Below are positions 54,117-64,000 of a stretch of DNA of 64,000 bases, piece after piece; positions within the stretch are counted from its first letter, which is position 1, and each line of letters starts with the position of its first letter. The position numbers and the translations under genes are program-made. Source of the stretch: Clostridiales bacterium (GTDB lineage Bacteria; Bacillota; Clostridia; Saccharofermentanales; Saccharofermentanaceae). Under the pieces are notes generated by a model. That model saw only the letters and a list, made by a program, of their open reading frames with translations. It searched no databases and had not been told where the DNA came from. The stretch spans positions 9,000 through 72,999 of the forward strand of contig JAFWDK010000008.1 of assembly GCA_017513085.1 (NCBI GenBank). The letters are read 5' to 3'.

Positions 54117-55781
54117 TTAGCGATTCTCTAAGAAGTGTGGAGTGAAGCAGCAGAAAAGTGTACCCAGACCAATGTTTACCACGGTTCCGATCACCAACGC
54201 CGGAAGCATCACATGAAGAACAATACCGACGATCACCGCAATAATGGCAGGGAACATTCCGATGTACAGGAATACCATCTGAACCACTGCTTTGATCGAA
54301 CTGCCCGTCTTTTGCGGCAGAGAAACGTTGATAAATGTACCCACTGCCGTGCCGAAGAAGCTGACGGATATGATGAACAGCATCCAGCCTAATACAACCA
54401 GAGGATTCTCCATCAGGAGAACGGTTACCACGATCAACGGAAGCAGAAGGTCGATTGCACAAACCACAAGTCCTCCGAACATGGAATACCACATTTTCAT
54501 AAACGAAGAATCCGGAACGAGTACGAAAAACTCTCTTGATGTATCTTCTTCCAGAGGGTTGCCCAATGTCCGGTAAAATACCAGCACGATCAAAGCTATC
54601 GCAGGTACCACGATCGGGCTTGCGCCATCAATGTCACGTCCCAGCCAGGCCGCTACGCCGGCTACAAGTGTAAATACGATCGATGTCTTCGAAAGCACTT
54701 TGAAAATACCGAAGCGCAGGCGGTTATAGATCGGTTTGAAGAAGAATACGCTGGCGCCAAAACCATGCGAGAAACCTTCACGATTCAGCTTATCGCTTCT
54801 GTCTTTCTGTCTGGTCATAACACCACCATTGGCAGATCTCTTGGCATTGTCGAGCAATTCCGCTTTCTTCTCTGCCGCGCCAATAGCATCTTCGTAAAAA
54901 TCTGCTTTCATCTTCCAGATAAAGACGACCAGGCATGCGCAACCAAGGATAAACAAAGCCAGGAAGATCAAGGATCTTGCCACAGAACCGGTGAGCGCAT
55001 AGTAGCAGAAACCACGGATCCAGCCCCAGAAAGGAACAAAGAATGTGTTACGGTTTCCGAAGAAACGGCATGCGCAAGTAAGAAGATCTTTCTCGGAACC
55101 GAGCGTTCTATAAAGGAAGAAAGCACCTGCCAGTACAGCTAAAAACACGATCAGATATGTCGTCATACTCTTGCCCGGACGCTTCCTGTTCGAAGAAATC
55201 GTATAGAATGCTACCTGGATCAGAGTACCCAGGACCGAAAGGAGCGAATACGCGAAGATGATCGAAAGGCTTCCGTAAATACTGAATCCTGCCCCTGAGG
55301 TAAGTTGAGGCATATAGAACAGCATACCTATGGAACATAACACCATCAGGCCCATCTGTCCCAAAAGACGGAAAAGCATGACTGACTGGGGTTTGATCGG
55401 TGCGGCAAATAACATCGGAACATCACCGGGCTGGAAAATATTGCCGGCCTTTTGTGAATTGGCGATATTCGATACCAAAACCAGGATCGCAGCCAAGGCA
55501 ATGATAGTATCTGTAAACAGGTACTTATCGATCCCTCTCTTTTCGAGGAAATTCTGAGAGTCTTCAGAATCGGCTTCTTCATCCTTCTCTCCCAGACCAA
55601 TAGTAACCGAGATTTGTTCTTTCTCGTCGGGATCATCGGAATCCGGTATAAGGCTACCGATCACAAATCCGATTAATCCACCCACGATCATTAGCACAAG
55701 AAACAAGGCAACCCATGTCTTCAAAAGTTTTTTGAACGTATTAATGAAAGAATGGGCAAAGTAGTACAGGAAGGGTCTCAT
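54117..55781 (-). CDS. Putative ABC exporter permease (large polytopic, ABC_export-like)
   Basis: 554 aa with at least 10 TM. The start overlaps the stop of the upstream ABC ATPase by 1 nt. Confidence 0.7.
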   Translation of the reverse strand: MRPFLYYFAHSFINTFKKLLKTWVALFLVLMIVGGLIGFVIGSLIPDSDDPDEKEQISVTIGLGEKDEEADSEDSQNFLEKRGIDKYLFTDTIIALAAILVLVSNIANSQKAGNIFQPGDVPMLFAAPIKPQSVMLFRLLGQMGLMVLCSIGMLFYMPQLTSGAGFSIYGSLSIIFAYSLLSVLGTLIQVAFYTISSNRKRPGKSMTTYLIVFLAVLAGAFFLYRTLGSEKDLLTCACRFFGNRNTFFVPFWGWIRGFCYYALTGSVARSLIFLALFILGCACLVVFIWKMKADFYEDAIGAAEKKAELLDNAKRSANGGVMTRQKDRSDKLNREGFSHGFGASVFFFKPIYNRLRFGIFKVLSKTSIVFTLVAGVAAWLGRDIDGASPIVVPAIALIVLVFYRTLGNPLEEDTSREFFVLVPDSSFMKMWYSMFGGLVVCAIDLLLPLIVVTVLLMENPLVVLGWMLFIISVSFFGTAVGTFINVSLPQKTGSSIKAVVQMVFLYIGMFPAIIAVIVGIVLHVMLPALVIGTVVNIGLGTLFCCFTPHFLENR

Positions 55782-56554
55782 TATGCGTTCTCCCCCTTCA
55801 CCTGCTCATTCGAATTGTCGGATCCTTCGGCTTCGGAATGGCTGACGTCATCTTTTTCTATGCCTTCAGTAACCTCAAAGAAGATGTCTTCCAACGTTTT
55901 TCCCGCGCCTTCGATTTCCGGACGGGTGATATTCGCGCGGACAGTTCCCTTCTGCATAATGATCGTGCGGTCCCAGAGCATGTCCACACTGTCGATGATA
56001 TGCGTACTGATCAGCATGGTCTTTCCCGCCTGACGCATCTCCTCGATGTAGTTCTTCAGTTCTTTTATAGCATGAGGGTCCAAACCGAGAAGCGGCTCAT
56101 CCATGAGGATAATATCAGGATCCGGCAGAAGGCCGATGCAAAGGTTCAATTTCTGCTGCATGCCTTTGGAAAGCTCATCGCCGAACTTCTTTTTCTTATC
56201 TGCCAGTTCAAAACGATCCAGAAGCATCTGAATACGGTCTTTATAGTTTGTCATCTTATATGCACGGGCAATGAATTCCATATGCTCGATCACGGTAAGG
56301 TTAGGATAAAGTGACGGCATCTCCGGGATATACCCCAGAACTCTTCTGGCCTGGACCGTCTTATTCGGCATACCATTGACGGTAATGCTGCCCTGGTATT
56401 TCAAAAAACCGATGATCGACTTGATGATCGTACTCTTGCCCGCTCCGTTCGGTCCCAAAAGAACCGTCAGGCTGCCCGGCTGCAAGGTAAACGACACATT
56501 ATCACAGGCAAGTGTCTTTCCGAACTTTTTAGTCACTCCATTAATCTCTAACAT
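55781..56554 (-). CDS. ABC transporter ATP-binding protein
   Basis: GPNGAGKST, LSKGMQQKLNL and IILMDEPLLGLD. Confidence 0.9.
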   Translation of the reverse strand: MLEINGVTKKFGKTLACDNVSFTLQPGSLTVLLGPNGAGKSTIIKSIIGFLKYQGSITVNGMPNKTVQARRVLGYIPEMPSLYPNLTVIEHMEFIARAYKMTNYKDRIQMLLDRFELADKKKKFGDELSKGMQQKLNLCIGLLPDPDIILMDEPLLGLDPHAIKELKNYIEEMRQAGKTMLISTHIIDSVDMLWDRTIIMQKGTVRANITRPEIEGAGKTLEDIFFEVTEGIEKDDVSHSEAEGSDNSNEQVKGENA

Positions 56555-56793
56555 AGAAAATCCTCACTTCTTCTTTTTTTCTCTCCAAGCGCTTATTTAA
56601 CGATACCATTGTAAAAATGAAAGGTAAATCCATAGTCTAGATAATCTAAAGAAATAGTAAAGTATGTTTTTTCGCTATTTTCACGGCTTCTATATATCCT
56701 TATAATGATTGAGTTATTCGTATTCTAGTGTTAAGATTGTCTACGGCGATTTTATATATAAGGAAAAAGAACTAGTTAGAACAGGAAAAATAT

Positions 56794-59613: not shown

Positions 59614-60906
59614 ATGTTTACACTTCAACAGATCAGTCAGCTCGTATGCCTCACTCCCCGCGTGAGACTGTACATCGACCCGGGAACGGGCAGCATGCTC
59701 TTCGCCGTACTCATCGGACTTCTCGGCGTAGGCCGCTTCCTCTTCAAAGGCCTCTGGGTCAAGCTCCGTTTCCTTTTCAGCGGCGGCAAGAAGACCGACG
59801 CTGACAACGACGTGATCCCGCTCGCCGTCTTCTCGGACGACAAGCGTTACTGGTCCGTCTTTGAGCCGATCCTGCGGGAACTCGACCAGCGCGGATTCGA
59901 CGTCGTTTATATGACCGCATCCGAAGACGACCCTGGCCTCAAGACCGACCTGTCTCACGTAAAAGCCGAGTGCATCGGTCCGGGAAACCACGCATTTGCC
60001 AAACTGAACTTCACCAAAGCCACCATGCTGCTCTCGACCACACCGGGACTGGATGTCTACCAGTGGAAGCGTTCCAAAGATGTAAAATACTACATCCACA
60101 TTCCGCACTCCCCGGCCGAGCTCACCACTTACCGCATGTTCGGCACAGACTACTATGACGCCATGATGCTTTCCGGCCAGTACCAGATCGACGATGCACG
60201 CGAGCTCGAAAAGCTCCGCGATCTTCCGGCAAAAGAACTCACCCTCGTGGGTATTCCTTTCCTCGACGAGAAGGTTAAGCGTCTGGAAGCATTCAAAGCG
60301 CAAAATAAGGACGATGACACCAAACATGAGCGTACGGTCCTTCTCGCTCCTTCCTGGGGCGAGAGTGCCATTCTCAAGCGTTACGGCGGGGATATGATCC
60401 GCCGCCTCCTCGACACCGGCTACCATATCATCATCCGCCCGCACCCGCAGTCCTTCACTTCCGAAAAAGATTTGATGGACAAGCTGATGCAGGAATTCCC
60501 GGAAAGCGACAGACTGGAATGGAACCGAGACAATGATAACTTCGATGTTCTCAACCGCTCTGACATCATGATCTCCGACTTCTCCGGCGTCATCTTTGAA
60601 TTCGCACTCGTATTCGACAAACCAGTCATCTGCGCAGACACCGAATTTGACTCCTCACCTTACGACGCCTGGTGGCTCGGCAGACTCCCCTGGGGCCAGA
60701 CCGCGATTCCACGCATCGGCAAGATCCTGACCAAAGACAACTTCTCCGAGATCAAAAACATGATCGACACCTGCATCGAAGACAAATCCTTCGAAGAAAG
60801 CCGCCACGCCGTCCGCGACGAAACCTGGACCCACCGCGGCGAAGGCGCCAGACTCGCCGCCGACTACATCACGGAAAAGTACAAAGAGTTAAAAACAACC
60901 AAGTAA
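59614..60906 (+). CDS. CDP-glycerol glycerophosphotransferase (TagB/TagF) family protein
   Basis: LAPSWGESAILKRYG..IIIRPHPQS..DIMISDFSGVIFEFALVFDKPVI is the TagF-family C-terminal catalytic pattern. ATG 59614 lies 6 nt after AGGAGGG, whereas the ATG at 59608 abuts the RBS. Confidence 0.8.
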   Translation: MFTLQQISQLVCLTPRVRLYIDPGTGSMLFAVLIGLLGVGRFLFKGLWVKLRFLFSGGKKTDADNDVIPLAVFSDDKRYWSVFEPILRELDQRGFDVVYMTASEDDPGLKTDLSHVKAECIGPGNHAFAKLNFTKATMLLSTTPGLDVYQWKRSKDVKYYIHIPHSPAELTTYRMFGTDYYDAMMLSGQYQIDDARELEKLRDLPAKELTLVGIPFLDEKVKRLEAFKAQNKDDDTKHERTVLLAPSWGESAILKRYGGDMIRRLLDTGYHIIIRPHPQSFTSEKDLMDKLMQEFPESDRLEWNRDNDNFDVLNRSDIMISDFSGVIFEFALVFDKPVICADTEFDSSPYDAWWLGRLPWGQTAIPRIGKILTKDNFSEIKNMIDTCIEDKSFEESRHAVRDETWTHRGEGARLAADYITEKYKELKTTK

Positions 60907-60933
60907 AACACAAAAACTTATCCCGCAAACAAA

Positions 60934-60978
60934 AACCTTGCTTCCCCGCAAAATCGCAGAGAAACAAGGTTATTTTTT
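60934..60978 (+). terminator. Intrinsic terminator after the TagF-like gene
   Basis: AACCTTGCTTC..GAAACAAGGTT stem (one mismatch) followed by ATTTTTTG. Confidence 0.55.
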
Positions 60979-60980
60979 GC

Positions 60981-61049
60981 CCCGGACATTGTTTGTGATT
61001 TCAAATTTCGCCGCGATTACGCAGGGCAAAGCCCGAGTACCAGCGGCGA
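60981..61049. repeat. Intergenic structured repeat, copy 1
   Basis: CCCGGACATTGTTTGTGATTTCAAATTTCGCCGCGATTACGCAGGGCAAAGCCCGAGTACCAGCGGCGA. It matches copy 2 except for a 4-nt insertion and one substitution. Confidence 0.85.
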
Positions 61050-61115
61050 TTTACTTCCTTTACACCGGAAACTCACCCACCAAATGAAATCCTCGCAGGA
61101 ACTAACTATTACAGT

Positions 61116-61198
61116 CCCGGACATTGTGATTTCAAATTTCGCCGCGATTACGCAGGGCGAAGCCCGAGTACCAGCGGCGAAATTTGCAAATCACAATG
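61116..61198. repeat. Intergenic structured repeat, copy 2, with full-length inverted-repeat arms
   Basis: CCCGGACATTGTGATTTCAAATTTCGCCGC..GCGGCGAAATTTGCAAATCACAATG. The ~24-nt arms have one bulge and enclose a nested GGGC-GAA-GCCC hairpin. The right arm contains the stop codon (61191-61193) of the decarboxylase gene. Confidence 0.85.
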
Positions 61199-62312
61199 TT
61201 TCTAAATACTTCATAAAATTCTCTTTGTTTTCCAGTGCTGTCGTGGTCGGGCGGCCAAGATCTTCGCGCGCTCCGATGGAACACATAACTTCGATCAGAC
61301 AGAGCTCATCCATCTCCTTGGCCACTGCCAGTTCACGATCCAGCGCGAAGAAATCCTCGACACGGATCGCATACGGATATCCGCACGCCTTCGCCACAGA
61401 AACCAGATCAACATCGCTCATTACTGTCGGCATACCACCCACCGTTTCATGCGCACCGTTATTGATCACGATATGCACGAGATTCTTCGGTTTGTTCGCT
61501 CCGATCACCGCCATGGAACCCATATGCATCAGAACCGCACCGTCACCATCGATACACCAGATCTTCTGGTTCGGCTTATTGATCGCAACTCCCAAAGCAA
61601 TGGAAGAACTGTGACCCATGGAACCGACTGTCAGGAAATCATACTTATGGCTCTGTCCGTTTGCCACTCTTGTCTCAAAAAGCTCTCGCGATGCTTTTCC
61701 TGTAGTGGAGATGATCGGGTCCTCTTCACTGACCGCCACGATATGCTGGATGATCTCTTCACGGACCATTGTATTCTCGTTACTATAAACCACCTTCTCG
61801 TCATACGAAAGCGCGCCTTTACGGATAACAAAAGCGACATCTTTGCCCGAAGAAAGGATCTCACGGAATTCATCCATCTTTGCCTTCACTTCATCGTCTG
61901 TCGTATCCTTGCCGATCGCAAAATTCGCAATACCCATATCGTCAAGAAGCTTCACGGTCACTTCACCCTGATAGATATGCTGTGGCTCATCGTGGATGCC
62001 GGGCTCGCCTCTCCAACCGATAATAAACACGGTCGGGATCGCATACACCTTATCATTCAGAAGACTGGCCACCGGATTGATGATATTGCCTTCACCGGAA
62101 TTCTGCATATAGACGACAGGCACTTTTCCGGTAGCAAGATGGTAACCTGCCGCCAAAGCCGTACAGTTGCCCTCATTTGCCGCGATCACATGATGATGCG
62201 CATCAATGCCGTAAGTATGCATAAGGTAATTGCAAAGTGCTTTTAATTGGGAATCCGGAACTCCTGTATAAAAATCCGAACCAATGATCTGAACCAGTTT
62301 TTCAACTTTCAT
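61191..62312 (-). CDS. aepY: Phosphonopyruvate decarboxylase
   Basis: FYTGVPDSQLKALCNYL..AANEGNCTALAAGYHLATGK..WCIDGDGAVLMHMGSMAVIG is a TPP enzyme of the Ppd family. It lies directly downstream of PEP mutase. Confidence 0.88.
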   Translation of the reverse strand: MKVEKLVQIIGSDFYTGVPDSQLKALCNYLMHTYGIDAHHHVIAANEGNCTALAAGYHLATGKVPVVYMQNSGEGNIINPVASLLNDKVYAIPTVFIIGWRGEPGIHDEPQHIYQGEVTVKLLDDMGIANFAIGKDTTDDEVKAKMDEFREILSSGKDVAFVIRKGALSYDEKVVYSNENTMVREEIIQHIVAVSEEDPIISTTGKASRELFETRVANGQSHKYDFLTVGSMGHSSSIALGVAINKPNQKIWCIDGDGAVLMHMGSMAVIGANKPKNLVHIVINNGAHETVGGMPTVMSDVDLVSVAKACGYPYAIRVEDFFALDRELAVAKEMDELCLIEVMCSIGAREDLGRPTTTALENKENFMKYLETL

Positions 62313-62330
62313 TTTACTATCTCCTTGACA

Positions 62331-63626
62331 TTAGATTTCGTCGATCAAAGTAATGATCTCTTTAATGGACATCAGACGGTCATCAACCTCTTTTGCCCGG
62401 TGATACTTAAGAATATCTTCCGCGGTCTTCTGCATGGCCGGAAAAGCACTTCTGGTGAGCTGGTTGGCGTAGATCACGATGTTCACGCCGTGTGCGGCCA
62501 GTTCGTCCTCGGTAATGGTATTAAAACTTGAAGGCACGACCACGATCGGGGTATGCTTGTTTTCTTCTCTGAACTTATCGCAGAACTCCAGGATCTCATC
62601 CGGCTCCTTCTTTCTGCTGTGGATCATGATTCCGTCCGCTCCGGCCTCGACAAAAGCTCTTGCCCGTGTCAGTGCGTCGTCCATGCCTTGTTCGAGGATC
62701 AGGCTTTCGATTCGTGCAATGATCATGAAATCATCCGTCAGCTGTGCTTTCTTACCTGCACGGATCTTCGCGGAAAACTCTTCAATGCTCGCCTGCGTCT
62801 GCTTCACTTCCGTTCCGAAAAGCGAGTTCTTCTTGAGTCCCGTCTTATCCTCGATAATGACAGCGGACACACCCAGTCTTTCCAGACTTCTCACCGTATA
62901 TACGAAATGCTCGGTCAATCCGCCTGTATCACCATCGAAGATGATCGGTTTTGTCGTTACCTCGGTAATATCCTCGATCGTGCGGAAACGGCTGGTCATA
63001 TCCACCAGCTCAATATCCGGTTTTCCTTTGGCCGTACTGTCGCAAAGGGAGCTGATCCACATCGCATCGAACTGATCGAGTTTCCCTTCATGCTCCACGA
63101 CCGTCTTTTCCACGATCAGACCGGTAAGACCGCTATGCGCTTCCATCGTCTTTACGATCGGTGTCATCTCGATCAGCTGGCGCAATCTCTTTCTGCGGTA
63201 TTCCGGCATACCCAGTTTCTCGCGAAGCTGCAGATCGATCTTTCTTACATTCTCGTTGAATGTATACGGAATATCCACCAATTCTCCGCCGTACTCGGCA
63301 AGCAGGTTCTCCACATGTGCCCGGATCGTGCTTTCCGGTCCCTCTTTCCAGTTATCGCCATGGACGACATAATCCGGATGGATCAAGGCGATCACATCGT
63401 CATAATGCATCTTCTCCTGGATCACGACCTTCTCCACCCCCGGGAGCGAACGGTACAGTTTCACACGCTCCTCCTGCGGGATCGTCGGGAACTTGTTATA
63501 ACGGATCAAGACCTGATCGGAAAGACATCCTACGATCACGTTTCCCAACTTCTTTGCTTCATTGATAATGTTCAGATGTCCCTCATGGATCACATCCGTG
63601 CAAAAGCATGTATAGACAGTTTTCAT
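62331..63626 (-). CDS. aepX: Fusion: HxGH-type cytidylyltransferase domain + phosphoenolpyruvate mutase
   Basis: The N-terminus VYTCFCTDVIHEGHLNIINEAKKLG is the cytidylyltransferase HxGH motif. The C-terminal domain carries the PepM signature IIEDKTGLKKNS (EDKxxxxxNS) and an isocitrate-lyase/PEP-mutase fold. Confidence 0.88.
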   Translation of the reverse strand: MKTVYTCFCTDVIHEGHLNIINEAKKLGNVIVGCLSDQVLIRYNKFPTIPQEERVKLYRSLPGVEKVVIQEKMHYDDVIALIHPDYVVHGDNWKEGPESTIRAHVENLLAEYGGELVDIPYTFNENVRKIDLQLREKLGMPEYRRKRLRQLIEMTPIVKTMEAHSGLTGLIVEKTVVEHEGKLDQFDAMWISSLCDSTAKGKPDIELVDMTSRFRTIEDITEVTTKPIIFDGDTGGLTEHFVYTVRSLERLGVSAVIIEDKTGLKKNSLFGTEVKQTQASIEEFSAKIRAGKKAQLTDDFMIIARIESLILEQGMDDALTRARAFVEAGADGIMIHSRKKEPDEILEFCDKFREENKHTPIVVVPSSFNTITEDELAAHGVNIVIYANQLTRSAFPAMQKTAEDILKYHRAKEVDDRLMSIKEIITLIDEI

Positions 63627-63703
63627 GTCTTATATCTCCTTCTTTATCGCATTTGTCGCAATAGACACATATCTCACGCGTGCCGGATCCGGCACACTAC
63701 CGC

Positions 63704-64000
63704 TCAGGAACGGTAGCCCTTCTCCTCGGAATAATGGACCGGAACCGAAACACCAGACGCTTGCAGAGCTTCTTGAAACACAACAAAGAAGTCTTCAATA
63801 TCTTTCTCATCGATCGCGCCCAGTGCGCAAAGACGGAAAGTATTGGTCGTGGAGATCTTACCGGGATAGATGGTAAATCCACGTTCATAACAATAATCAT
63901 GCACCTTCTCGAAACTCCAGTTCGGATCATCCGGATAGATTGCCGAAGAAACCAGACCTGCGCGCCATTCCGGCTTGATCACCTGACGGAAGCCAAGCTC
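63704..64000 (-). CDS. phnW: 2-aminoethylphosphonate-pyruvate transaminase, C-terminal part (N-terminus beyond window)
   Basis: The frame is open to base 64000 (..ELGFRQVIKPEWRAGLVSSAIYPDDPNWSFEKVHDYCYERGFTIYPGKISTTNTFRLCALGAID). This is the class V aminotransferase AEPT C-terminal pattern. It lies upstream of pepM and ppd. Confidence 0.8.
   Translation of the reverse strand, partial: ELGFRQVIKPEWRAGLVSSAIYPDDPNWSFEKVHDYCYERGFTIYPGKISTTNTFRLCALGAIDEKDIEDFFVVFQEALQASGVSVPVHYSEEKGYRS

Follow-up and report, generated by a model that had tools for sequence, protein, structure and literature searches.

Most bacterial phosphonate biosynthesis serves the tailoring of surface molecules via CMP-phosphonates, and the later steps of this process are enigmatic (Rice et al., 2019, PMC6697681). 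Here we examine such a locus at the end of a 64,000-nt stretch of contig JAFWDK010000008.1 (Clostridiales bacterium, assembly GCA_017513085.1; the whole stretch is hereafter the window). Genes for the synthesis of 2-aminoethylphosphonate (AEP) converge there on a gene for a TagF-like phosphotransferase and a gene for a fusion of a YidC-like domain with a domain of the alkaline phosphatase (AP) superfamily, termed YidC-AP. The explanation that we favour, and hold to be probable, is that an AEP/CMP-AEP supply cassette has been joined to a Clostridia-wide, three-domain machine for head-group transfer.

The closest described systems are the Pnt clusters of Atopobium rimae, Olsenella uli and Treponema denticola, which, like the window locus, combine phosphoenolpyruvate (PEP) mutase (Ppm, here PepM), phosphonopyruvate decarboxylase (Ppd), AEP:pyruvate aminotransferase (AEPT), a LicC-family enzyme (PntC) and a nucleotidyltransferase fused to Ppm (PMC6697681). 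The example clusters in Fig. 3c of that study have two nucleotidyltransferases, one fused and one separate, and their surface destination was inferred, as it is for the window locus. Pnt neighbourhoods contain LicD-like phosphotransferases or glycosyltransferases, whereas the window locus has a TagF-like/YidC/AP-fold machine instead of LicD. The Lic pathway (LicA, LicB, LicC, LicD), by which teichoic acids and LPS are decorated with phosphocholine, follows a Kennedy-type logic that recurs in sister core loci, which likewise encode a LicC-like enzyme, a choline kinase and an EamA or BCCT transporter. However, the Lic pathway uses the phosphocholine transferase LicD (PF04991), in place of which the core loci have TagF-like, YidC and AP genes. 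A survey of phosphorylcholine pathways mentions neither Clostridia nor LicD-less systems (PMC10434233).

A pair of LicC-like and TagF-like GT-B proteins, likened here by description, is also known as FtaB/FtaD (CD0242/CD0244) of Clostridioides difficile. In the flagellin type A glycan pathway, FtaD transfers phospho-N-methylthreonine from CDP-N-methylthreonine to GlcNAc in vitro (bioRxiv 10.64898/2026.02.12.704994; PMC10714395), and the LicC-like FtaB has been proposed as the donor-maker, its purification having failed (bioRxiv 10.64898/2026.02.12.704994). Because FtaD uses a CDP-amino-acid donor, TagF-like enzymes are not limited to CDP-alditols. FtaD differs from the window system in being soluble or cytoplasmic, in acting on GlcNAc-flagellin and in lacking partners of the YidC or AP-fold type; as donor it takes a CDP-amino acid that forms a phosphodiester, whereas the donor proposed for the window system is a CMP-phosphonate.

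With TagF, TarF, TarL, TagB and Cps3D the window protein has in common the GT-B fold, the PF04464 domain, an HP-containing motif (RPHPQ in the window protein) and, putatively, a second invariant histidine. It differs from them in its identity of only about 15-17%, in the lack of a CDP-glycerol supply gene nearby and in its attachment to the membrane, by a single transmembrane (TM) anchor with a DPGTGS motif or, in a second architecture, by fusion to YidC; its donor is probably CMP-AEP or CDP-choline. YidC-AP in turn resembles LtaS/LtaP, GacH, EptA/MCR-1 and PbgA/YejM in its multi-TM anchor, its extracytoplasmic AP fold and, putatively, its invariant set of Asp, Thr and Asp-His residues. Enzymes of the LtaS/EptA-type class take phospho-head groups off lipids and pass them to acceptors in the envelope; PbgA, the best fold match, is not known as an enzyme. 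Unlike the LtaS/EptA/PbgA class, YidC-AP has an N-terminal YidC-like domain, and its sequence similarity to that class is confined to the metal-site motifs. The YidC domain itself differs from the YidC/Oxa1 insertases (SpoIIIJ/YidC2) by an asparagine, N45, and by its constant fusion to an enzyme. Both types of fusion bear the NCBI name “membrane protein insertase YidC”, a label that conceals the enzyme domains and probably misdescribes the function.

The AEP cassette is already known in kind, and TagF-like transfer of a non-alditol group has very recent precedent. What appears to be new, as full-text searches found nothing comparable, is a TagF-like/YidC-like/AP-fold triad as the LicD-independent partner of LicC cassettes, together with the YidC fusions: a literature search identified no CMP-AEP transferase, and one for YidC-sulfatase or YidC-TagF fusions returned nothing. 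The locus and its relatives nominate a cloneable candidate for CMP-AEP transfer, namely the TagF-like enzyme with its YidC-like and LtaS/EptA-like partners. In many Lachnospiraceae and Oscillospiraceae, this machine seems to add choline-type head groups in the absence of LicD, which bears on how abundant gut commensals display zwitterionic, host-mimicking epitopes.

A conserved core beside exchangeable cassettes

A scan of GTDB species representatives, anchored on an alignment of TagF-like homologues, gave at least 563 matching stretches, and 80 loci were analysed by all-against-all clustering of neighbour families and Pfam scans of cluster representatives. The YidC-AP gene adjoins the TagF-like gene in 72 of these loci, on the same strand and in either order, and is missing from only two of the 56 loci with at least 3 kb on both sides (an automatic count flagged three, among them L013, a distance-threshold artefact). 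The pair is a conserved two-gene core, encoded by Oscillospiraceae, Lachnospiraceae, Butyrivibrio, Acetatifactor, Christensenellaceae-like and other Clostridia. No further open reading frame (ORF) family was found by the clustering in ten or more of the 80 loci.

An AEP cassette lies beside the core in nine of the 80 loci, all from the window’s clade (TagF-like identity of at least 71%), and these nine form a single clade in a neighbour-joining tree of TagF-like proteins. Twenty-three loci instead pair the core with a LicC-like gene and a choline/ethanolamine kinase gene (PF01633), usually with an EamA (LicB-like) or BCCT transporter and mostly as a single co-directional operon (LicC-ChoK-EamA-TagF-YidC/AP). 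Other LicC-bearing loci encode a fusion of LicC with a class-I/II aminotransferase (three loci), a class-V aminotransferase with LicC (one) or LicC alone (nine). Cultured carriers of the core include Acetatifactor aquisgranensis DSM 110981 (L032, choline type) and Butyrivibrio sp. AC2005 and MB2005 (L033 and L061, aminotransferase type); the AEP type is represented by metagenome-assembled genomes only. LicC-like genes are concentrated at the core, their density being 9.6 per 100 kb up to 4 kb from it vs. 0.65 per 100 kb at 4-10 kb, and the LicC-like proteins track their supply cassette. LicD was found in only one of the 80 core loci, leaving 79 LicD-free, and PF04991 is absent from the window. 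A tblastn search for a TagD-like gene found none in the 80 loci, a negative slightly weakened by the approximate query sequence, and the same kind of search with the PF01467 domain of the window’s PepM fusion matched only the nine AEP loci.

Because LicC-type cassettes swap beside the core, TagD is lacking throughout and LicD occurs in a single locus, the core is most likely a machine for head-group transfer, with CMP-AEP as its donor here, and not a CDP-glycerol-dependent teichoic-acid polymerase. The initial annotation had allowed either an activated phosphonate or glycerophosphate as the transferred group; since the core adjoins LicC-based cassettes and no TagD-type supply was found, the former is favoured and the latter disfavoured. 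That the TagF-like gene is conserved in loci without pepM formally counts against the link to phosphonates as that annotation had framed it. It does not refute the link, because the pepM-free loci carry analogous LicC cassettes and no TagD. The tie proposed between the TagF-like and sulfatase-like genes and the AEP genes is, overall, backed by comparative genomics.

Further junctions of AEP cassette and core came from the inverse test, in which metagenome contigs were anchored on the PepM fusion (80 loci at 73-89% PepM identity). In L115 the core is divergent from the AEP cassette and its TagF-like protein, 61% identical, falls outside the window’s clade. In L156 the YidC-AP, TagF-like and PepM genes are co-directional, the TagF-like gene lying directly upstream of PepM. 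The genes of L104 form a single operon that encodes AEPT, the cytidylyltransferase::PepM fusion, a 556-aa AP-superfamily membrane protein, a 636-aa YidC::TagF fusion and Ppd. In the 636-aa protein, a YidC domain at the N terminus (PF02096, E 3e-28) is joined to a C-terminal part similar to the window’s TagF-like protein (BLASTP E 5e-33; shared TVL(L/I)APSW and TGY.II.RPHPQ), and the 556-aa protein matches the YidC-AP ectodomain at two metal-site motifs (E 5e-9 and 1e-3). The same three domains thus recur with YidC fused to the other enzyme, a Rosetta-stone rearrangement that, judged from these sequences, argues for a physical or functional triad.

Fusions of the YidC::TagF type constitute a large family of about 633-638 aa (PF02096 and PF04464). 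Their loci carry the AEP cassette in the order LicC-AEPT-PepM-AP-YidC::TagF-63 aa-Ppd (L167-169) or AP(834 aa)-LicC-AEPT-PepM-Ppd-pilin-like-YidC::TagF-...-YfhO (L176). Others combine AP and YidC::TagF with an HTH-LicC-ChoK fusion and a transporter (L172/173), or show the orders GtrA-LicC::aminotransferase-AP-YidC::TagF-...-GT2 (L170/171) and GT-C-type genes-LicC::aminotransferase-YidC::TagF (L174/175). AEP cassettes are therefore joined to TagF-like/YidC/AP genes in at least five arrangements (convergent, divergent, co-directional, operon-internal, and cassette followed by YidC::TagF and YfhO), and cassette swapping is common to both core architectures.

The LicC::aminotransferase fusion (about 604-615 aa) recurs in both architectures as a third kind of supply module (L033 8145-9992; L060 12309-14120; L061; L170 4452-6275; L174 5174-6988) and suggests another amino-alcohol phosphate head group; L060 additionally carries an ornithine-cyclodeaminase-family gene. 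A fourth module beside the core comprises a helix-turn-helix (HTH)::IspD-like cytidylyltransferase, a LicC-like protein whose first head-group position is His, and a transporter of the MFS type (L063 6625-9785; L051; L065; L072; L081), and possibly imports and activates a ready-made organophosphate. A YfhO-family gene lies directly downstream of the core in L033 (13998-16508; Butyrivibrio) and in the AEP-type YidC::TagF locus L176 (10194-12863).

A small ORF of 63-102 aa with no Pfam match stands directly 3' of every YidC::TagF gene examined (L167 9929-10120; L170 9904-10209; L172 8907-9215; L174 8908-9171; L176 8908-9120) and may be a fourth conserved component of this architecture; no counterpart was seen 3' of the window’s TagF-like gene. 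In about eight of the metagenome loci, four genes are inserted beside the cytidylyltransferase::PepM gene (L100 11320-15076; also L113, L143, L144, L146 and L165). They encode a calcineurin-like phosphoesterase, an NAD-dependent epimerase/dehydratase, DUF6564 and a saccharopine-dehydrogenase-like protein, and lie mostly between PepM and Ppd, or upstream of PepM in L144 and L165, often with LicD near. This insert would represent a different phosphonate-tailoring route.

Synthesis and probable activation of AEP

All three enzymes of AEP synthesis score above the cut-offs of curated models. The PEP mutase part of the 431-aa fusion matches TIGR02320 (419.7 bits vs. an equivalog cut-off of 319.55) and PDB PEP mutases (5UNC/1M1B, E ~1e-41 to 1e-43). 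It contains the catalytic motif EDKxxxxxNS (EDKTGLKKNS at residue 259), which separates Ppm from other proteins of the isocitrate-lyase family (PMC6697681). Ppd matches TIGR03297 (459.9 bits vs. an equivalog cut-off of 312.5) and has both thiamine pyrophosphate domains, PF02776 and PF02775. The 97 residues of AEPT that lie in the window match TIGR03301 (E 6.6e-24, 84.9 bits), and the full-length protein (383 aa, contig L001) reaches 461.9 bits vs. a cut-off of 360.8. Curated homology and the established enzymology of these families support the three-step pathway from PEP through phosphonopyruvate (PepM) and phosphonoacetaldehyde (Ppd) to AEP (AEPT), as the initial annotation had read the minus-strand genes.

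The operon was extended with contigs that encode exactly the same PepM fusion and match the last ~3 kb of the window at 99.9-100% identity (100% for L003-L005, and 99.9% for L001, the longest). On these contigs the AEPT gene extends to about 64855 in extended coordinates, and the next gene along encodes a protein that joins a MarR-like winged helix-turn-helix (wHTH) to a LicC-type nucleotidyltransferase domain, giving the order LicC-like-AEPT-cytidylyltransferase::PepM-Ppd. The prediction that the cluster runs past the window edge was borne out by this gene and the rest of AEPT; no LicD, glycosyltransferase or flippase gene follows the LicC-like gene on the near-identical contigs. The genes that lie upstream of it, for LppM lipoproteins, LRR/DUF4214 proteins and a tRNA, are not kept in relatives, and an Rfam search of the extended contig found only the tRNA and no riboswitch.

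The LicC-like protein matches Streptococcus pneumoniae LicC (1JYK, E 5.9e-27) and T. denticola PntC (6PD1, E 2.2e-9). In the window operon and in all nine AEP-type loci it has Glu at both head-group-contacting positions (an E-D-E signature), and in choline-type loci the first of these positions is Ser, Pro or Asp. The corresponding contacts are E104/E196 in the AEP-specific Tde-PntC vs. D105/D192 in the choline-specific Spn-LicC (PMC6697681), with the caveat that the determinants are mainly steric and that Ari-PntC is LicC-like (Rice et al., PMC6697681). The second candidate is the N-terminal domain of the PepM fusion (PF01467, residues 11-101, E 5.4e-12; HxGH motif HEGH at residue 14), whose match to the cytidylyltransferase domain of Fom1 (PDB 5X3D, E 1.2e-26) makes it, by sequence, a clear Fom1-type homologue. 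Fusions of PF01467 with Ppm account for 23.6% of all Ppm (PMC6697681). Formation of CMP-AEP has been demonstrated experimentally within the LicC/PntC family (PMC6697681), and by analogy the reaction of AEP with CTP is more likely to be catalysed by the LicC/PntC-like enzyme; the Fom1-type domain would be an alternative catalyst or act on another phosphonate. The nucleotide activation deduced earlier from the HxGH domain is supported; the separate LicC/PntC-type enzyme beyond the window edge was out of reach of the initial annotation.

The core proteins, a possible mechanism and its alternatives

The TagF-like protein matches PF04464 (E 7e-12; 45.4 bits vs. a gathering score of 22.1) and no NCBIfam model, and phmmer against PDB sequences gives marginal matches only (E 0.2). 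Its AlphaFold2 model (pLDDT 86.9) has a GT-B fold, for which the top Foldseek matches are TagF structures (3L7M/3L7L/3L7K; E ~1e-11, best 7e-12; TM-score 0.54-0.59), with the capsule polymerase Cps3D also ahead of generic GT-B glycosyltransferases. A single N-terminal TM helix carries the near-invariant motif YIDPGTGSMLFA, and the GT-B domain is predicted to be cytoplasmic. H167 and H279 (RPHPQ) are invariant in 49 sequences, as are their counterparts H370 and H479 in the YidC::TagF family, and H279 aligns with the “MHP” motif of TarL. The catalytic histidines of TagF are H444 and H584. We propose that the protein acts as a CMP-AEP:acceptor AEP (phosphonyl) transferase. In about 11 loci, a gene of the CPBP/Rce1-like intramembrane protease family (PF02517) lies directly upstream of the TagF-like gene (including L019 9304-10017, L024, L055, L067, L083 and L085), and in one 540-aa protein (P0061) PF02517 is fused to the TagF-like sequence.

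The N-terminal domain of YidC-AP (residues ~30-220) is recognised by PF02096 (E 4e-23; 82.6 bits vs. 35) and TIGR03592 (90.6 vs. 84.3 bits) and aligns over the five-TM core with Bacillus halodurans YidC2 and Escherichia coli YidC (3WO7, 3WVF). The groove arginine of YidC, described as strictly conserved across all homologues (PMC8920935), is replaced by Asn (N45) in all 46 aligned family members; given this invariant replacement, the domain probably does not work as a standard insertase. At the same position, all members of the YidC::TagF family keep Lys (K34). Hydropathy indicates about seven TM helices beyond the YidC domain (about 12 in total), and, together with charge, a short KR-rich loop followed by an acidic, predicted extracytoplasmic C-terminal domain (residues ~480-935). 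Additional YidC-AP paralogues occur in L009, L011, L018, L038, L040, L058 and L084, and L038 has a tandem duplication of the entire TagF-like/YidC-AP pair.

The C-terminal half of YidC-AP gives weak sulfatase/phosphodiesterase profile matches (PF00884, 19 bits vs. a gathering score of 25). The top Foldseek matches of its AlphaFold2 model (pLDDT 85) are full-length PbgA/YejM, MCR-1, LtaP/LtaS and phosphonate monoester hydrolases, with sulfatases also among the matches. D499, T536 (T-x4-P-x-L-F), H722 and D802-H803 are invariant in the ectodomain, and the DHG region aligns to the sulfatase/phosphonate monoester hydrolase metal site. The motif C/S-x-P-x-R is absent from all 935 residues, which rules out a formylglycine sulfatase; the earlier label “sulfatase” gives way to an anchored ectodomain of the LtaS/EptA/PbgA type with an invariant Thr. 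T536, in a context that we take to resemble T-x4-P-x-[LM]-F of EptA/MCR-1, is likely a nucleophile of the LtaS/EptA kind.

These features can be combined into a most likely mechanism, in which every function beyond AEP synthesis is an inference. The supply cassette converts PEP through phosphonopyruvate and phosphonoacetaldehyde to AEP, which would then be activated with CTP to CMP-AEP. The transfer machine would comprise the TagF-like GT-B enzyme at the cytoplasmic face, the YidC-like membrane domain and the extracytoplasmic LtaS/EptA-like AP-fold domain. At the inner face of the membrane, an acceptor hydroxyl would attack the phosphonyl phosphorus of CMP-AEP in the TagF-like enzyme with release of CMP, by the chemistry of TagF on CDP-glycerol and of C. 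difficile FtaD on CDP-N-methylthreonine, to yield an AEP-bearing, membrane-associated intermediate. Outside, the Thr536 ectodomain may act on this intermediate or its carrier, so as to complete the decoration on an envelope polymer or relocate it there. Cassettes for choline or other amino alcohols would feed this machine in sister lineages.

How the YidC domain and the ectodomain take part is a matter of speculation. A lipid-linked polymer precursor could be decorated in the cytoplasm and handled later by the AP protein, for example in transfer or ligation outside. Alternatively, there could be a relay, with charging of a lipid, crossing aided by YidC and transfer by the Thr ectodomain to a wall or lipoteichoic polymer. 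GacH, LtaS and EptA act analogously on bulk phospholipids. In a detailed version of the relay, which would be of a type not previously described, the TagF-like enzyme would load AEP from CMP-AEP (in sister lineages, choline or another amino-alcohol phosphate) on a membrane lipid or lipid-linked carrier, the degenerate YidC-like domain, recruited from protein insertion, would conduct or scramble the head group across the membrane, and the Thr536 domain would transfer it via a covalent Thr-phosphonyl intermediate to a wall or lipoteichoic polymer. We regard this version as tentative and, in its entirety, rather unlikely. If true, it would be a LicD-independent route to extracytoplasmic zwitterionic envelope decoration, widely distributed among gut and rumen Clostridia, and a YidC/Oxa1 domain would for the first time be assigned a non-insertase function.

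Two other views of the core are improbable in our judgement, and about equally so. The first takes the core for a conventional primase or polymerase of glycerol- or ribitol-phosphate teichoic acid with an LtaS-like synthase, supplied by CDP-glycerol or phosphatidylglycerol; AEP would be added to that polymer, or to something else, by another enzyme, and the adjacency would reflect a shared envelope theme. The PF04464 family name, the matches to TagF, TarL and Cps3D, and the high rank of LtaS/LtaP in the fold search with the ectodomain speak for this view, and the HTH-IspD-like cytidylyltransferase and MFS transporter of a few loci could supply a CDP-alditol. YfhO, a teichoic-acid glycosylation enzyme, adjoins the core in L033 and L176, which also fits. 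It fits less well that the approximate TagD query found nothing in the 80 loci and that the cassettes seen repeatedly combine a LicC-type gene with choline kinase or with AEP enzymes. The TagF-like protein is moreover small (~415 aa, one GT-B unit) and very distant from the polymerases, as the PDB and NCBIfam searches indicate, and in L104 and L167 the TagF-like and AP genes lie inside the AEP operon between PepM and Ppd.

The second view is that the end product is a phosphonolipid, the TagF-like enzyme moving AEP to diacylglycerol, a glycolipid or ceramide and the AP-fold protein remodelling or turning over this lipid. AEP clusters with sulfatase-family genes were earlier assigned to “Group 4 phosphonolipids” (PMC8942020). 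Known bacterial phosphonolipid clusters, however, use enzymes of the CDP-alcohol phosphatidyltransferase type (“Burkholderiales_CDP-OH”; PMC8942020). A lipid acceptor would suit the TM anchor of the TagF-like protein, with its invariant intramembrane motif, and TagB-type relatives use lipid-linked acceptors. An outward-facing Thr-type transferase domain is, in contrast, strictly co-conserved with the TagF-like enzyme, and the YfhO, GtrA, GT2 and PMT_2 neighbours seen in several loci point to glycopolymer modification.

Several observations weigh against our preferred explanation of a cassette joined to a transfer machine. Comparison of pepM neighbourhoods, which the initial annotation had suggested, brought the new junctions described above, but in most of the 80 close PepM homologues no core is nearby and in 13 of the 80 LicD lies near the cassette. 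The cassette does not need the core, therefore; it is mobile and independent of the TagF-like/YidC-AP machine, and adjacency alone is no proof of a joint function. Among the GTDB loci, the window-type association amounts to about one event, to which L115 and L156 are to be added, and in 35 of 80 core loci, 13 of them with ample flanks, the available sequence contains no LicC-type gene. Within the operon there are two cytidylyltransferases, LicC-like and Fom1-type, either of which is a candidate donor-maker. The roles of both core families are proposed from sequence, fold, context and precedent. The assignments of H167/H279 to the catalytic histidines of TagF and of T536 to the LtaS/EptA nucleophile are suggested by invariance and motif resemblance rather than by superposition, and a 66-residue query around T536 returned no AP-superfamily alignment from the PDB.

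Some of these points would be expected if a mobile AEP cassette had come to lie beside an envelope pair without a functional link, its product being used by a transferase encoded elsewhere, such as LicD. Across L008-L016, identity to the window is 87-95% for the AEP cassette (86-92% for its proteins), 71-76% for the TagF-like protein and 52-57% for YidC-AP, a gap that reflects either very different constraint or separate histories. The many other contexts of the cassette, and the separation of the two modules into convergent transcription units with a probable terminator between them, point the same way. The multiplicity of cassette-core arrangements nevertheless makes a coincidence unlikely, slightly more so than either view above: some are single operons of a second architecture that is distantly related (27% identity), synteny is kept in nine of the nine window-clade loci with enough flank, and LicD is absent from the window. 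An antibiotic-type small-molecule phosphonate, finally, is rejected as very improbable: the Fom1-type cytidylyltransferase::PepM fusion also serves fosfomycin biosynthesis (PMC6697681), but the conserved set contains no tailoring enzymes (methyltransferases, oxygenases, ATP-grasp/NRPS ligases), resistance or exporter genes, the neighbours are membrane and envelope enzymes, in keeping with the envelope destination first proposed, and the combination of AEPT with a LicC-type enzyme has been assigned to cell-surface tailoring (PMC6697681).

Layout of the locus

Every gene named by the initial annotation, including the YidC fusion upstream of the TagF-like gene, was recovered in its place by an ORF map and Pfam/NCBIfam profile searches of the window’s proteins (Table 1). 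The plus-strand pair converges on the minus-strand AEP operon. The TagF-like gene begins seven bases 3' of the YidC-AP gene; the public version of its protein has 430 aa and starts at the ATG at 59614, the start coordinate also given by the initial annotation.

Table 1. Features of the AEP/TagF-like locus, numbered along the 64,000-nt window; the last row uses extended coordinates from near-identical contigs.
Feature	Position	Strand	Remarks
Promoter-like site, TTTTCA-17-TATAAT (10/12)	56678..56706	+	~90 nt upstream of YidC-AP gene; putative, from a consensus scan only, no evidence of function
YidC-AP fusion gene, 935 aa	56794..59601	+	YidC domain PF02096 and C-terminal AP-superfamily domain
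TagF-like phosphotransferase gene, 432 aa	59608..60906	+	PF04464
Hairpin, 17-bp stem, then T-rich tail	60934..60971	-	Convergent spacer between TagF-like gene and ppd
Phosphonopyruvate decarboxylase (Ppd) gene, 373 aa	61191..62312	-	TIGR03297
Cytidylyltransferase::PEP mutase fusion gene, 431 aa	62331..63626	-	PF01467 and TIGR02320
AEP:pyruvate aminotransferase (AEPT) gene, last 97 codons	63704..64000	-	Partial match to TIGR03301; truncated by window edge
wHTH-LicC/PntC-like cytidylyltransferase gene, 296 aa	about 64876-65766	-	LicC-type nucleotidyltransferase domain

The hairpin in the convergent spacer is a probable terminator that ends the AEP operon and is possibly bidirectional. The same spacer holds two copies of a ~55-68-nt element (60995-61049 and 61126-61180; in its longer form ~60982-61050 and 61117-61183), 131 nt apart, exact or with one mismatch and with an internal inverted repeat (TCGCCGC...GCGGCGA). 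No third copy occurs within the 64-kb window, and Tandem Repeats Finder reported no tandem array in the spacer, the repeat being two dispersed copies. Contig L001 differs from the window by one additional spacer unit of ~131 nt. A check of base composition gave no evident signal of horizontal transfer. Divergent from the YidC-AP gene are genes for an ABC ATPase and a PF16962 “ABC_export” permease (54117-56554, minus strand); since this pair is kept only in the closest genome (L007), it is probably outside the system.

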